Below the pieces are notes generated by a model that saw nothing but the letters and a program-made list of their open reading frames with translations, was not told the origin of the DNA and ran no database searches. Made by a program: the position numbers and the translations under genes. Positions 24,665 to 31,472 of a stretch of DNA of 64,000 nucleotides are shown one piece after another (position 1 is the first letter of the stretch; each line of letters begins with the position of its first letter). This DNA comes from a phage: the sequence record PQ826431.1, one strand, 5' to 3'.

Positions 24665-24708
24665 GCTAGAACCCACCTAAATCGAACAGAGACGCTCTAA
24701 AATAGAAA

Positions 24709-24737
24709 AGGCACCCACTTGGGTGCCTTTGTTTTAT
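24709..24737. terminator. bidirectional terminator at convergence of plus and minus gene blocks
   Basis: hairpin GGCACCCA-ctt-GGGTGCC flanked by A-run and T-run. Confidence 0.65.
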
Positions 24738-25006
24738 TCTTCGTTAGATTGCGTCTCAGACGCGTTAAATTCGGTTTCAGTACAACTTGCTAGGTAACTT
24801 ATATTTTGCATCACTACAACTACAGGTGTTTGAAGTTTATTTTCTAGCCCCGCAGCCACTTGAGCCAAGGCATTATCAATATTTGATTTTCTAACGCCTG
24901 TTCCATGTCCTGTTGCCAAGTAAAGATTACCTTCCCCTTTTTGCGTAGCATTGGCAAAGTAGTAAACGTAATGTGCAAGGTAGTAATCACGGATTTCTTC
25001 AGTCAT
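24734..25006 (-). CDS. hypothetical protein (90 aa)
   Basis: ORF track; RBS AGGAGAATAAA. Confidence 0.55.
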   Translation of the reverse strand: MTEEIRDYYLAHYVYYFANATQKGEGNLYLATGHGTGVRKSNIDNALAQVAAGLENKLQTPVVVVMQNISYLASCTETEFNASETQSNEE

Positions 25007-25049
25007 TTTATTCTCCTAATAAGAAAGGGGCCGAAGCCCCTTGAGTGGT

Positions 25050-25865
25050 TTATTTGTTTAAGTGGTCTTCGACCATTTTAATGAAACCTTCATTGCTGAA
25101 GGCTGTTGCAGCTTTTTCTCGGTAAACAAAAACTCCACGATCTTCATAGAGAAGTGTTTCTTCGTAATTAACTCCAGGGTTAACTACAACCATTTTTGTA
25201 CCCATACTAAGTGCAGGAAATAATTCCCAATTAAAATTGATAACTTGGTTTGAACATCCTACTACTACAACCAAATCTTGCATGGTCAAAGTATCGAACA
25301 AGTGAGCCATATCTGCATACAAAGGTGCAGCCTCACCAAAAAATACAACATTAGGCTTCACCCAGTTATAATCATCTATGTTTATACTATTGTAACCAAT
25401 ATCTACCAGTGTTTTGTAATCTCCAGGATGCATACGGTAAACTACTTCAGGAAGATATCCGTGTACGTGAATAACAGAATCTCTGTCTACACCTGCTCGC
25501 TCTAGTAGATCATCAACGTTTGTTGTCAAGTTTACTATTTGGTTAGGATATTCCTTAAACCACTTTGCTATTTGAATATGTGCAGCATTAGGTTGTACAT
25601 CTTTAAGCTCAACACGTCTTTTGTTATAAAATTCGTGTGTTTTGGCATACAAATCCATACCGTTCTCGTCTACACCACCGACCACTGGAAGATCTGGAGA
25701 TGTTCTAACACGATAACCTGCTTGGAAAGCTCCAATATCGCAGACCTCTTCTAAATCATATTCTTCCCATAAAGCACGACCACTATCTGTGTCTGTTCTA
25801 AATGTTCGAATCCCACTGTCTGCACTTAAACCTGCACCGCTTACAAAAATCACTCGTCTTGGCAT
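25050..25865 (-). CDS. Sir2-family (sirtuin-like) NAD-binding protein, 271 aa
   Basis: N-terminal FVSGAGLSADSGIRTFR (sirtuin GAG-S-x-x-SGI-P-x-FR-like motif), IHVHG motif; no Zn-ribbon cysteines seen. Confidence 0.65.
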   Translation of the reverse strand: MPRRVIFVSGAGLSADSGIRTFRTDTDSGRALWEEYDLEEVCDIGAFQAGYRVRTSPDLPVVGGVDENGMDLYAKTHEFYNKRRVELKDVQPNAAHIQIAKWFKEYPNQIVNLTTNVDDLLERAGVDRDSVIHVHGYLPEVVYRMHPGDYKTLVDIGYNSINIDDYNWVKPNVVFFGEAAPLYADMAHLFDTLTMQDLVVVVGCSNQVINFNWELFPALSMGTKMVVVNPGVNYEETLLYEDRGVFVYREKAATAFSNEGFIKMVEDHLNK

Positions 25866-26335
25866 TCTTCCTCCTCAAATGGATCATAAGAATTGTACTC
25901 GTAAGTATCATCTTCTGAAAATTCTACTTCGAAATAAATATCAAACTCTGCAAACAGACGTAGGATGTTAGACATGCTGTAATAATTATCGTAGGCAGAT
26001 TCAGCTTCATAGTAAACATAAAGCAAATGGTTAGCCTTATCATCTTCCAAATATTTCCCGTCTGCATACGCATAGTCTGCATATGCTTTACCTGCATCTT
26101 CCACAAGAGAACGATCAAGCAGAGTAGGAAATGGTTTCTCTTTTTCTTTTAGTTTGCTCACTAACCAATGTGCAATATCATTCCATTCTGCATCCATACC
26201 ACTAAAGCAACTTGCTTCTTCTCCAAAAGAAGCTTCTCCTAAATCGCCACTAATACGAACAACATTAGATGAATTATAGCCACACGTTTCACAATCAGAG
26301 TAACTATTATGCACATTGACATTTACTTGAAACAT
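25850..26335 (-). CDS. hypothetical acidic protein (161 aa)
   Basis: ORF track; D/E/Y-rich. Confidence 0.55.
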   Translation of the reverse strand: MFQVNVNVHNSYSDCETCGYNSSNVVRISGDLGEASFGEEASCFSGMDAEWNDIAHWLVSKLKEKEKPFPTLLDRSLVEDAGKAYADYAYADGKYLEDDKANHLLYVYYEAESAYDNYYSMSNILRLFAEFDIYFEVEFSEDDTYEYNSYDPFEEEECQDE

Positions 26336-26393
26336 ATTCCCTCCTATAAAAGAAAAGCCCCCTGAAACAGGAGGCTTTGTTCAGATATTGGCA

Positions 26394-27047
26394 CTATACC
26401 AGACTTTCAAGGTATTTGTCAAGGGCTTCTTGATCACCTTGACAAACATAGCAACGGAAGTCTTGAGCCGAAGGTTGTTTATTTTCATCCCAATCCCAAT
26501 AAACATTACCTTTATAACGCGAGCCAGGGAACTCAAAAGAGGCTGTATGTGTAATGTATCCTGGGCCACCAGTGAAATCACAGAATGAGAATTGAGGGTA
26601 TGCCGCCTTTACTGCCTCAATAAACCAAGCTTTACGATCTAAAGCTTCATTGATGCTATACGCATGTCTCTCCATTTCTTCCCACGTTTTCCAGACACTT
26701 CTCTCATCAGGAGAAAAGACAAGCCATTCTGGAAGGTATAGAGTGTCATAGTAATCATCATATTCGATCTCGGAGGCGCACGAAGCTGACTCCTCCAGTT
26801 TTGAGTAATCAAAAGCAGAATATACCCACCAACCATCTTCCAGTAACGCTTTGATAGGGACGAAGCCTTTATCAGCATATTGATCGAATTGTTTGACACG
26901 GTGGCTTGTGCAGTCTTCAAACTCACATTCTAAACGATATGCACCTTTTCGACGAGCCTCAAGACCGTGTGTACTGAAAATAACAACACTTCCTTCACCA
27001 TCATTACGATCTACTTGATAAGCAACCACTGGTTTTGAATTTGACAT
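26394..27047 (-). CDS. hypothetical protein (217 aa)
   Basis: ORF track. Confidence 0.55.
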   Translation of the reverse strand: MSNSKPVVAYQVDRNDGEGSVVIFSTHGLEARRKGAYRLECEFEDCTSHRVKQFDQYADKGFVPIKALLEDGWWVYSAFDYSKLEESASCASEIEYDDYYDTLYLPEWLVFSPDERSVWKTWEEMERHAYSINEALDRKAWFIEAVKAAYPQFSFCDFTGGPGYITHTASFEFPGSRYKGNVYWDWDENKQPSAQDFRCYVCQGDQEALDKYLESLV

Positions 27048-27730
27048 TATTTCTCCTTATCTAGAAGATTGTTAGACAAAAACACTGCACGAGCAAAACC
27101 ACGTGCGGTTAGTGATCTAAGTTGTTTTGTTTTTGCACTAGCTCCACCTAAGCTTTTCCAACCCCAGAAGCAGCCTATATGATCTACTGGTTTCTTCACT
27201 GGTTGAACAAAACCATTGCCGTGCCAAATACAAGTTTTCTTTGTATACCCATCACGGGTAGGCATTTTAGGATGAAAACTTCCTTCCTCTTCAAACAAAT
27301 ACCCACCATACTCATAAGGATCAAAGTAAAAATCAGGTTTACGCCATAAGGTTGAAAGTTTACCTACTGGGTTTTCAATCATCCAAGGAACATTATATTT
27401 GTTACCCAAAGCTTCCACTACACGAATATTAGCTAAAGCTTCATCTAATTCCTCTGTGCTACGTTCGTGTTTGCTACCACTACCTGCTAACATAGTGCAG
27501 GGTGGAAATCCAAAAATAATATCGGGTTTAGGTATCCCATGATCTTCAGGGTTGAATGTAGAATCTATCCAGGCATTCACATAAGTTATGTTTGGGTGCT
27601 CCATCCTAACCTCGTATTTACCGTGATCCCCTTCATCAGCGTTTACACAAAAACACTTGTGACCTGCTTCGGCATAACGTAACACCATGATCCCAGATCC
27701 GTCAAACATAGACAAAACTGTTTTACTCAT
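27047..27730 (-). CDS. C5-cytosine methyltransferase-fold protein, short (227 aa), Pro-Cys-Thr in place of Pro-Cys-Gln
   Basis: motif I-like FDGSG, motif IV-like DIIFGFPPCTMLAGSG, motif VI-like ENPVGKL; track ORF trimmed to ATG after RBS GGAGGGG. Confidence 0.5.
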   Translation of the reverse strand: MSKTVLSMFDGSGIMVLRYAEAGHKCFCVNADEGDHGKYEVRMEHPNITYVNAWIDSTFNPEDHGIPKPDIIFGFPPCTMLAGSGSKHERSTEELDEALANIRVVEALGNKYNVPWMIENPVGKLSTLWRKPDFYFDPYEYGGYLFEEEGSFHPKMPTRDGYTKKTCIWHGNGFVQPVKKPVDHIGCFWGWKSLGGASAKTKQLRSLTARGFARAVFLSNNLLDKEK

Positions 27731-28118
27731 TACCCCTCCATTCAAGACAAGCCATAACTTTACGCCAATCACTTTCTGTAAGAAAAATCTCGTTTGCTTT
27801 CTTCCACAAATCTAAATCGTGAAGGGTTGGAATACGATATGTTAGTTCACAGAATCTATGCTCTTCTTCTGTAATATAACCAAAATGCAGAGCCACATCG
27901 TGAAACCAACACCAACCATGCATCTCTCGAACAACATGGTCATGCTGAGACATTGTTTTATGCCGTAAACCTAACCAACAAGGAACAGATACTTTAGTAG
28001 TCTTTAATCTGTGATCAACAGTATTAGAGTATTCAATAATAGCTGTCAGTTTCAATCGTGCTTTTTCTAAATCCTCATGCGTCACTTTGAAATAACTTTC
28101 TGAAAGATATCCACACAT
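27723..28118 (-). CDS. hypothetical protein (131 aa)
   Basis: track ORF trimmed to ATG after RBS GAAGGAGG. Confidence 0.5.
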   Translation of the reverse strand: MCGYLSESYFKVTHEDLEKARLKLTAIIEYSNTVDHRLKTTKVSVPCWLGLRHKTMSQHDHVVREMHGWCWFHDVALHFGYITEEEHRFCELTYRIPTLHDLDLWKKANEIFLTESDWRKVMACLEWRGNE

Positions 28119-28119
28119 A

Positions 28120-29061
28120 TTAATAACCTCCTTCAAAAGGCTTTACTACATGTTGATTAGCTTTAAAACGTTCAACATAGTCGTTTTCGCCCATGTTTTC
28201 ATATAGCTTAGTAACAACATAAAAGTTTTCCCAAGCATATTCCCTAAACCAACCACTAGTGATGGATGTGCAGACTTTAGATAAAGCCATTATAAAACTT
28301 TGCTTAGGGGTTGGACCTCCGATCTCTCCACCGAAAGGAATTTGTGAACGTTCCAAAGCCAAAACACACGCTTCTTCATAAACACCTAACAGGCGCACAT
28401 GTTTTGGTTGAGCAAAAAACTTTTCTTTGCTGGTCATAACTTCACTTCCATCTTTCATATAAGATTTATATGCCGGAGCATCCATTACCGCGATTGCTTC
28501 ATGGATAGAATCATGATCATAAACATACGGAACCTCATCACCTTTAAAAAAGTCTTTACTTTTTACGTTTAAGTTCGGATGAGAGTAAGTGTATGTTTCT
28601 TTCTCACGCAACTCATAAATACTCTTAAGATTTTCTGGGATCTTTGCGCCCAGTGACCGCATGAAATGAATATCTTTCATAGTTTTAAAGAAGTGAGGAC
28701 TATCCTTTTTAAAACGATGACTCATTTTAAGAAGGTAGAGCACATCTAAAGGAGCAACAACATGTCCAGCGTAAGTTCGACGAACATCATCAGAATCTTC
28801 ACAATAACTAATCAAAGCTTCTGTGCTATCTCCTTGAGAAGCAATATCGTATTCCAAATGTGCACCAGCTATCATTTTGACATGGCCTTTGTTTCCTTTA
28901 CGTTCTACAAGTTCAACAAACTCCTCTTGAGAGAACATTTTTGATAATTCTTCCCACTCTTGTTCTGTACACAGGTAATCTAAATCTACACAAGGGCGAT
29001 ACAAGTCTTTTCCCATGTCCATAGCATGAATTTGCAATGCACGGCTACCAATTAACACCAT
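28120..29061 (-). CDS. hypothetical protein (313 aa); possible nucleotidyltransferase-like N-terminus
   Basis: ORF track; N-terminal LIGSRAL...DLD pattern only weakly resembles NTase GS...D-x-D motif. Confidence 0.5.
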   Translation of the reverse strand: MVLIGSRALQIHAMDMGKDLYRPCVDLDYLCTEQEWEELSKMFSQEEFVELVERKGNKGHVKMIAGAHLEYDIASQGDSTEALISYCEDSDDVRRTYAGHVVAPLDVLYLLKMSHRFKKDSPHFFKTMKDIHFMRSLGAKIPENLKSIYELREKETYTYSHPNLNVKSKDFFKGDEVPYVYDHDSIHEAIAVMDAPAYKSYMKDGSEVMTSKEKFFAQPKHVRLLGVYEEACVLALERSQIPFGGEIGGPTPKQSFIMALSKVCTSITSGWFREYAWENFYVVTKLYENMGENDYVERFKANQHVVKPFEGGY

Positions 29062-29091
29062 AATATTTCTCCTCTATTGGTTGATAGGTTA

Positions 29092-29120
29092 AGTTTATCA
29101 AGCTTCCAGATTCCTGTCAA
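29092..29120 (-). promoter_or_regulatory. promoter on minus strand (TTGACA-17-TAAACT)
   Basis: reverse-complement reading; upstream of 28120-29061 gene. Confidence 0.5.
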
Positions 29121-29141
29121 TAAAAAACCCGCCGAAGCGGG
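29121..29141 (-). terminator. intrinsic terminator (CCCGC-UUCG-GCGGG + U6) on minus strand
   Basis: UUCG tetraloop hairpin followed by U-run in minus-strand RNA; abuts promoter. Confidence 0.6.
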
Positions 29142-29151
29142 TTATTATTTA

Positions 29152-29424
29152 CTAACACATTGAGGAAGAAGAGATCCAAACACCTCTTGTGGTTAAACCA
29201 TTTTCATCCAACTCTACACCATAATCTTCACAAATGAAATCAATATAGTGATCTGCGGCTGGCGTTCCTGTAGGGTAATAAGTTTCTCCGTTACCGTAGT
29301 CACCTATCCAAGCTTGTTCCTGAAACTGTTCACAAAGTTCTTCAATCTCCTTACGGAACTTTCTTTGTGCTTGTTCCATCTCTTTAACTTTCTTTTTTAT
29401 CAGCAGTTCGCCTTCAGACTCCAC
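29152..29424 (-). CDS. small acidic protein (90 aa) with C-terminal GVW-x-SSS-x-C tail
   Basis: ORF track (GTG start); tail shared with 29434 and 29939 ORFs. Confidence 0.5.
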   Translation of the reverse strand: MESEGELLIKKKVKEMEQAQRKFRKEIEELCEQFQEQAWIGDYGNGETYYPTGTPAADHYIDFICEDYGVELDENGLTTRGVWISSSSMC

Positions 29425-29433
29425 AATCTCTCC

Positions 29434-29652
29434 TTAACAGCTACTACTGTGCCAAACGCCTTGAGAATTAACGACGAAACCATCATCACCTTCACCATAA
29501 CAAGAAGAGGATTGCCAATCTTCAAAACAGATTGCGTCATTTTCTAAACTAAGACCAAAACCAGCATCTTCAGCTTCTTTTGTAAGTTCGTCCACTAAAG
29601 CCATAATAGCTTGGGCTTTTTCAGTTAATTCTTCAACATTACGATCACTCAT
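29434..29652 (-). CDS. small acidic protein (72 aa) with C-terminal GVWHSSSC tail
   Basis: track ORF trimmed to ATG after RBS AGAGGAGAAATACTA. Confidence 0.5.
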   Translation of the reverse strand: MSDRNVEELTEKAQAIMALVDELTKEAEDAGFGLSLENDAICFEDWQSSSCYGEGDDGFVVNSQGVWHSSSC

Positions 29653-29927
29653 TAGTATTTCTCCTCTGGTTGGAAAACTGAACGACAAGCCCACATACTA
29701 GCTTCTTTTAAATGTTTAATAGCACAACGGATTTGATCAATACGTTCGTATGCAAGATCTAATTCTTTTTCTGTGCCGTCAAAAGACCCATGATCTGCTT
29801 CACAATACTCTTCCTCTAAAGCTTTGAAGATTAAACCTAAACGCTCTTCTGCATCTTTAATAGCGTTAACCTTGCCAATCTTATCGTCAGTATGCGCCTT
29901 ATAACCTTTGATATCTTCGATTCCCAC
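29652..29927 (-). CDS. hypothetical protein (about 91 aa)
   Basis: track ORF 29652-29966 (TTG, no RBS) trimmed to GTG after AGGAGG; start uncertain. Confidence 0.4.
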   Translation of the reverse strand: MGIEDIKGYKAHTDDKIGKVNAIKDAEERLGLIFKALEEEYCEADHGSFDGTEKELDLAYERIDQIRCAIKHLKEASMWACRSVFQPEEKY

Positions 29928-29938
29928 TTTACCTCCTA

Positions 29939-30136
29939 TTAACAACTTAAAGAAGATGGATGCCAATTTGTTCCAGTATTCTCATTTTCATCTTCTGGAT
30001 CATAATAGCCACCCATCCCATATTCAGGGGAGAAACGGAAACCTTTACCAGTCTCATCTGCTAACTGCTCTGCTTCCGCTAAAGCCTCATAAGCTGCTTT
30101 TACGGCTTCTTCTACTGTTTTAAACTTGGTCGTCAT
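29939..30136 (-). CDS. small acidic protein (65 aa) with C-terminal NWHPSSLSC tail
   Basis: ORF track. Confidence 0.5.
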   Translation of the reverse strand: MTTKFKTVEEAVKAAYEALAEAEQLADETGKGFRFSPEYGMGGYYDPEDENENTGTNWHPSSLSC

Positions 30137-30410
30137 AAAATTTCTCCTCTCCTAAAGACATGTTGACATGAAATGCACGATATGTAAATTCGTTGTCCGT
30201 TGTGTTTGAATAAAACTCAAATTGAACAACACCGTCTTGAGAAGACAGATACATGCCAATTTGAACTGTCCCTTCTGGTACCAGGTAAGCATACTCTGGA
30301 CGTAGTGTTACATTGTAAAAATAAAGTTCCCCAACACCCATTTCATCCCAAGCTTCCCAAGCGGTAACGAAGTTACTTTCAAAACTTGTTACTGATCCGA
30401 ACTCTGCCAT
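30120..30410 (-). CDS. hypothetical protein (96 aa)
   Basis: ORF track. Confidence 0.5.
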   Translation of the reverse strand: MAEFGSVTSFESNFVTAWEAWDEMGVGELYFYNVTLRPEYAYLVPEGTVQIGMYLSSQDGVVQFEFYSNTTDNEFTYRAFHVNMSLGEEKFYDDQV

Positions 30411-30901
30411 AAAACCTCCTCAATCTTGTAGTTTGACTCCATCTCCAACACATTTCCACGAACGTCTCTCCGAAGAAAGGCATAAGCTTTATTAGGTATT
30501 GTAGACTCATATTTAACCATATCTGGCACAGCAAAAGATACTACTACTCCTGCTGGGCTTCTGTCAAGAGCCTTATTAATATTTCTAAGAATATCGTTAG
30601 CCAAGATTTCTGCCAATTCTCCAAGAACAGTTTCGGTTATATCTTTATATCCCATTAAGTATTTGTTGATATCTTTCATCTCTGTATTGTTCAGAGTATA
30701 ATCCAAAGGATAGAAATTCAAAGCGGAGTCACTTTTATGTGTCCACATGAAATGCACCCGATCCGAGCAGAATCGTAACCCTCTTTGAAGAATATCTTCT
30801 ACAACAGGCAGAATTTCTTTTGTCACATCATTAACCATGTTGTAATCTAAGATTTCTGCCAAGTTTGTTCTTTGTTCACCACGTTTACGTTTAGGAATCA
30901 C
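30389..30901 (-). CDS. hypothetical protein (170 aa)
   Basis: ORF track. Confidence 0.55.
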   Translation of the reverse strand: MIPKRKRGEQRTNLAEILDYNMVNDVTKEILPVVEDILQRGLRFCSDRVHFMWTHKSDSALNFYPLDYTLNNTEMKDINKYLMGYKDITETVLGELAEILANDILRNINKALDRSPAGVVVSFAVPDMVKYESTIPNKAYAFLRRDVRGNVLEMESNYKIEEVLWQSSDQ

Positions 30902-31472
30902 TTGTTATTGCCCTCATTACCAAAGGTCGTAGAAAATCGTAAATCTCTTGTTTTGTTTTCCCACGAATGTTTAAACAAGGAACATTATTGGCTTTAGCTA
31001 TCTTCCAAGCCGTAGCTGTTCCACCTTTTGCATCTCCATGTTTATCAGTATTAGCACAAGCCAACAAGAAACATGATGGAGCAGGATTCTCCAAATCTCT
31101 ACCTAACACTTGATGCACATTACGTTGGTGCAATTTTCTAGCACCCTGCTTAAGCTTTTCATAGACTGGGTGAACATCTTTGATCCATTGCACAGAGATA
31201 GCATAGTTCATTGTATCTGGTTTTGCAAGAACAATAACATCCCCTGGAATCTGATTACCTTTGAAATTTTCCCAAGGAACATAAATCTCCTTGTTAGTAG
31301 GATTTTCAGACTCTTGGACACCTGTTTCAAAAGCAGAATCACTACCCTCTGCCTTCCCAGACCTTAATTTAAACCCAAGGTTTGAAAGCCATTTCCCTAT
31401 GCCTACCATCAAAGCCCACTCTTCTTCGGATATGTCTCTACTTCCAACTCCCGTATAGAACAGTTCTGCCAT
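30891..31472 (-). CDS. hypothetical protein (193 aa); weak DprA/SLOG-like Rossmann pattern
   Basis: VGSR...SGKAEGSDSAFETGV resembles DprA/SLOG nucleotide-binding motif; track ORF trimmed to ATG after RBS GAGGTG. Confidence 0.45.
   Translation of the reverse strand: MAELFYTGVGSRDISEEEWALMVGIGKWLSNLGFKLRSGKAEGSDSAFETGVQESENPTNKEIYVPWENFKGNQIPGDVIVLAKPDTMNYAISVQWIKDVHPVYEKLKQGARKLHQRNVHQVLGRDLENPAPSCFLLACANTDKHGDAKGGTATAWKIAKANNVPCLNIRGKTKQEIYDFLRPLVMRAITSDS

Follow-up and report, generated by a model that had tools for sequence, protein, structure and literature searches.

A mosaic accessory region of a Phapecoctavirus encodes an Acb2-family protein, a minimal C5-cytosine methyltransferase, a zinc-less sirtuin and a nucleotidyltransferase linked to small acidic proteins

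The MenAT1 locus of M. tuberculosis encodes the nucleotidyltransferase (NTase) toxin MenT1, which is controlled, via an N-terminal helix, by a 7.4-kDa protein (MenA1) from a short upstream open reading frame (PMC7450476, PMC11375011). Phage MNT-like NTases making decoy cyclic dinucleotides have been described by Ho et al. (bioRxiv 10.1101/2022.06.09.495361). For a clade of phage sirtuins with prototypes in Escherichia phage V5 and Proteus phage Mydo, an RNA-repair role has been predicted (Iyer, Burroughs, Anantharaman & Aravind 2022, Viruses 14:1977; PMC9503650). We compared a 5.7-kb stretch of phage DNA with these systems, with the Acb2/Vs.4 anti-CBASS sponges and with small C5-cytosine methyltransferases (MTases).

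The stretch lies in a window of 64,000 nucleotides (the whole of the DNA analyzed) from a Phapecoctavirus of the phAPEC8 group, an E. coli phage type already sequenced; its identity to Escherichia phage Mt1B1_P17 is 99.5%. At least 80% of the window is covered by 63 phage records, 18 of them at 99% identity or higher, and its sequence was therefore already known. All genes of the stretch are on the minus strand, back to back, and the genes, terminators and acidic proteins listed in the initial annotation were recovered in place or a few bases off. That annotation had put the island at the start of the minus-strand block. Because minus-strand transcription proceeds toward lower coordinates, the island in fact occupies the distal (3') end of a leftward block that begins at about 60.7 kb. 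The features are as follows.

24707-24730, both strands: bidirectional intrinsic terminator; perfect hairpin, 10-bp stem with 6 GC pairs, T-runs on both strands
24734-25006, minus: 90-aa protein, phrog_15991 (PHROG E 1.5e-52); last gene of the leftward block
25025-25042, minus: intrinsic terminator after the Sir2 gene, annotated in phage Schickermooser too
25050-25865, minus: Zn-less CobB-like sirtuin (Sir2), 271 aa (PF02146, E 1.9e-22)
25850-26335, minus: 161-aa protein, net charge -27, phrog_9509
26354-26378, minus: intrinsic terminator separating the 217-aa gene from the 161-aa/Sir2 pair; 11-bp stem and T-run
26394-27047, minus: 217-aa protein (g217), phrog_8514
27047-27730, minus: miniature C5-cytosine MTase, 227 aa, phrog_757
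27723-28136, minus: 137-aa protein, phrog_16551
28120-29061, minus: MenT/AbiEii-like NTase, 313 aa, DUF7277 and DUF7275, C-terminal helical domain
29126-29143, then 29120-29092, minus: terminator followed by a sigma-70-like promoter match
29152-29424, minus: P8, 90 aa, ends GVWISSSSMC; phrog_899 "W-SS-C tail" family
29434-29652, minus: P9, 72 aa, ends GVWHSSSC, internal DWQSSSC; W-SS-C family
29652-29927, minus: Acb2/Vs.4-family anti-CBASS sponge for cyclic nucleotides, 91 aa; GTG start preceded by the ribosome-binding site AGGAGG
29939-30136, minus: P11, 65 aa, ends NWHPSSLSC; W-SS-C family (phrog_899, E 1.2e-12)
30120-30410, minus: 96-aa acidic protein, net charge -13, phrog_4991
30891-31472, minus: DprA/SLOG-like Rossmannoid protein, just beyond the island (phrog_768, E 9e-62)

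The terminator at 24707-24730 closes the rightward and the leftward block alike. Phage Schickermooser is annotated with a terminator at the same position, and also with the one at 26354-26378. Terminator-like sites exceeded chance (13 versus 4.7 ± 2.2 in shuffles). Promoter-like sites in the region did not (25 versus 21.8 ± 4.9), so the sigma-70-like promoter (TTGACA-17-TAAACT with TG before the second hexamer, a 10/12 consensus match, 31 nt ahead of the NTase start codon) is a positional consensus match only. Of the island's own terminator-promoter unit, proposed earlier at 29092-29141, the terminator stands, and the promoter is reduced to that match.

Different parts of the island resemble different phages. 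Justusliebigvirus shares window DNA at approximately 25002-27026 only. T-even vs.4 regions match the Acb2 segment at 70-82% identity, T4-like phages the NTase segment at approximately 67%, and siphophages the MTase segment at approximately 68%. The 90-aa protein, which has no significant Pfam match, is confined to close relatives among the related loci compared. The 161-aa gene, whose end overlaps the start of Sir2 by 16 nt, co-occurs with Sir2 in close relatives only, and its product had no match in Pfam, NCBIfam or PADLOC. In 8 related loci, at 33-67% identity, the 217-aa protein accompanies MTase and Sir2, and it has no sequence relative in the PDB; the 137-aa protein is present in just 1 of 80 related loci, and the 96-aa protein lies upstream of the small-protein array in 9. 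The DprA/SLOG-like gene beyond the island was matched by its PHROG family; its Pfam DprA match reached only E 0.067, and the protein has no sequence relative in the PDB. The segment is thus a mosaic accessory region made up of at least four units that differ in history and also circulate separately in other phage lineages. As a whole, it is probably best explained as a mosaic distal region that holds Acb2, an MTase, a Zn-less Sir2, and an NTase with small proteins.

The interval 29152-30410 encodes Acb2 and four small proteins, with net charges of -7 to -13. The small acidic proteins noted earlier are therefore present, but the one at 29652-29927 had gone unrecognized as an Acb2/Vs.4 homologue. 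It matches T4 Vs.4 (PDB 7uq2) at E 6.2e-28, with 65% identity over 89 residues, and scores 60.5 bits against Pfam Acb2_Tad1_hairpin (PF24729; cutoff, 27 bits), which places it in the Acb2 family. Its IKGY motif and a Lys 15 residues later correspond to Y11 and K26 of PaMx33 Acb2, which bind cyclic dinucleotides. Since this Tyr and Lys are kept, the product is of a known kind of anti-CBASS sponge, and from the same residues it is predicted to bind cyclic dinucleotides. By sequestering 3',3'-cGAMP and related cyclic dinucleotides, an oligomeric sponge of this kind would keep CBASS effectors inactive and so block this cGAS-like bacterial immunity.

The short C5-methyltransferase fold suggested for the 227-aa protein was confirmed. 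The motifs FxGxG, PC (Cys78) and ENV-like ENPV are invariant, and the C terminus carries RxLTxRxxARAV. By fold and motifs the enzyme is a complete, minimal C5-cytosine MTase, even though it has no match to Pfam PF00145 and is too divergent for a PDB profile search; it is probably a DNA C5-methyltransferase. Most likely, it would methylate a short site in phage DNA and so protect it from particular restriction enzymes. Exceptional sensitivity to restriction-modification systems has been reported for relatives of this phage group (PMC8594841), and any such protection must therefore be narrow.

The 271-aa protein is a sirtuin without a Zn ribbon, as had been proposed. It contains only 2 Cys, which makes a 4-Cys ribbon impossible, and the fold holds with catalytic motifs intact. 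It belongs to the phage clade of Iyer et al., across which SGAGxS, TTNVD, HxHG, FFxE and GCS are invariant, and the number of Cys ranges from 2 to 4. The initial annotation had likened it to the Thoeris, DSR and Sir2-HerA effectors. However, it had no PADLOC match at E <= 0.01, to defense-type Sir2 HMMs or otherwise, and its best matches are CobB-type deacylases, with E. coli CobB (1s5p; E 7.6e-19) the best solved relative. The protein would be an NAD-dependent CobB-like enzyme, most likely an ADP-ribosyl or deacyl transferase with a macromolecular target rather than an NAD-depleting effector.

In Vequintavirus, the Sir2 orthologue (46% identity) has an RNA ligase gene on one side and a MazG-like gene on the other, in the cluster phosphoesterase/kinase/Rnl1/116-aa/Sir2/MazG-like/DNA-ligase. 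All other members of that cluster have orthologues in the window at 51.5-57.8 kb, where the RNA ligase, kinase and phosphoesterase are 26-32 kb from Sir2. The linkage between Sir2 and RNA repair is thus missing in this genome, which counts against an RNA-repair context here; the cluster may represent an ancestral or alternative context.

Could the island be a single anti-defense or modification module centered on Sir2? Such a module would counter, for example, Thoeris, DSR or CBASS, with the MTase-fold enzyme and the NTase acting on one target together with a Sir2 that consumes NAD or transfers from it. The genes are adjacent on one strand, 8-9 of 80 NTase loci preserve the succession NTase-MTase-g217-Sir2, down to approximately 50% identity, the distant NTase homologue of Vibrio phage RYC has NAD-related neighbors (described below), and the presence of Acb2 indicates that counter-defense genes gather in the region. 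Against this, the phyletic distributions differ. Most of the 984 phage records with a Sir2 of this clade have neither this NTase nor this MTase, and Sir2 is all that T5-like and rV5-like loci have in common with the island; the NTase occurs in 735, mostly without Sir2; and the MTase family is scattered over unrelated siphophages and prophages. Moreover, a terminator divides the NTase-MTase-g217 stretch from the 161-aa/Sir2 pair, and Sir2 itself is CobB-like. We consider a joint module very unlikely. What survives of the proposed counter-defense island is its accessory, mosaic nature, the Acb2 sponge and the probable MTase.

The guess of an NTase-like fold for the 313-aa protein was borne out by fold matches to MenT1, MenT3/TglT, MenT4 and ANT(2''). 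The pol-beta catalytic set GS...DxD...E is invariant. There was no AbiEii/DUF1814 match in Pfam, NCBIfam or PADLOC, and no structural match was found for the 160-residue C-terminal domain. The distant homologue in Vibrio phage RYC adjoins Prs-like, macro-like and NAPRT-like NAD-related genes.

The small proteins P8, P9 and P11 have in common an N-terminal helix and a carboxy terminus of the invariant form W-x-SS-x-x-C (Trp-x-Ser-Ser-x-x-Cys); all six Ser codons occur at the invariant Ser positions of this family. The three proteins correspond to the only W-SS-C-type ORFs of the 64-kb window, all within the island. Among NTase loci, ORFs ending in W.{1,2}SS.{0,3}C made up 192 of 987 within 3 kb upstream on the same strand, as opposed to 5 of 6,500 elsewhere (odds ratio 314, p 4e-168). 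They were found in 70 of 80 loci, in 26 of 30 NTase clusters at 70% identity and in 10 of 10 at 55%, always upstream and on the same strand. No other neighbor family is common to the NTase lineages: this one occurs in 15 of 31 clusters, any other in at most 5. Conversely, a scan with the small-protein profile found loci on NTase contigs in 10 of 10 cases. The arrangement recurs in Mosigvirus JS09, whose NTase is 43% identical, and at a locus with a 77%-identical NTase the three small genes are contiguous, without Acb2. The numbers of records with P8-type proteins and with the NTase are nearly equal in phages of Escherichia (251 versus 260), Klebsiella (34 versus 35), Enterobacter (34 versus 36) and Shigella (18 versus 18). 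The linkage is thus statistically established, and we infer that the NTase and the small acidic proteins of the adjacent upstream genes work together, through physical or enzymatic coupling. By analogy with MenA1, the small proteins most likely bind or regulate the NTase, or else serve as its substrates. The pairing is widespread and seemingly undescribed, and appears to be the only novel part of the island.

One alternative is that the adjacency is inherited synteny with no functional coupling, the small proteins being independent host-takeover or anti-defense factors (e.g., sponges or protein mimics) that duplicate in a hot spot, and the NTase serving something else, for instance the repair of RNA 3' ends. 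In this phage Acb2 does split the array; in being small, acidic and numerous, the paralogues resemble known anti-defense proteins; and an RNA NTase could serve the tRNA genes and RNA-repair enzymes that the phage carries. Distant NTase homologues in Vibrio phage RYC and Streptomyces phage BillNye have no W-SS-C neighbors, and in this phage a terminator and promoter split the small genes from the NTase gene, so co-expression is not required. Yet other neighbor families turn over between NTase lineages, whereas this family persists directly upstream across Stephanstirmvirinae-like, T4-like and jumbo phages, and the reciprocal scan and the matched record counts also speak against mere synteny, which we regard as rather unlikely.

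The NTase and the small upstream proteins may instead form a toxin-antitoxin or abortive-infection-type system (AbiE/MenAT-like) that serves host shut-off or exclusion of competing phages rather than counter-defense, the NTase extending tRNA 3' ends to block translation and the small proteins restraining it. The closest folds are those of tRNA-modifying MenT toxins, and the position of the small genes recalls that of the MenT1 antitoxin. However, PADLOC gave no AbiE match, 1-5 paralogue subtypes per phage would be unusual for an antitoxin, the carriers are large virulent phages, and MenA1-type control leaves the strong acidity and common C-terminal motif unexplained. Here, in addition, the small genes and the NTase are in different predicted transcription units. 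This reading seems unlikely, and we retain a partnership between the NTase and its small neighbors.

Compared with known systems, the window Acb2 is in the same length class as T4 Vs.4 (91 aa) and, like it, has Asp in place of the cA3-binding Arg. However, its central 25 residues are divergent, and it lies inside an array of W-SS-C genes rather than in the vs/regB region. Known C5-MTases with a small target-recognition domain include the DNMT3A/B catalytic domain, prophage MTase 3g7u, M.HhaI and M.HaeIII; the window MTase has only 227 aa, with an insert of approximately 65 aa, DNMT3-sized, at the site of that domain. Sir2 keeps the NAD-binding and catalytic motifs of CobB and other sirtuins, and shares with the phage clade (46% identity to the Vequintavirus member, 51% to a T5-like one) the lack of a Zn ribbon and TTNVD where sirtuins have TQNID. 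Unlike its Vequintavirus orthologue, it is detached from the RNA ligase/kinase/phosphoesterase/MazG-like cluster.

Like the loci of Ho et al., the island places a phage pol-beta-superfamily NTase amid a methyltransferase and other counter-defense genes. The motif GS-x-AY[GAN]T-x4-SDxD of those enzymes is missing here, where the NTase reads GSRAL, 17 residues, VDLDY, and its closest folds are MenT and ANT(2'') rather than MNT or CD-NTases. It differs from AbiEii/DUF1814 NTases in having no sequence-level match to their models and in its additional conserved helical domain of approximately 160 aa (DUF7275) with many invariant His, Asp and Tyr. With MenAT1 it shares the invariant GS...DxD...E set and one or more small helix-containing proteins encoded directly upstream on the same strand. 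In sequence, these small proteins resemble neither MenA1 nor any protein of solved structure. MenA1 is a single antitoxin of a cellular locus, whereas virulent phages carry the W-SS-C/NTase pairing, with one to five upstream paralogues that are acidic and end in the invariant W-x-SS-x-x-C.

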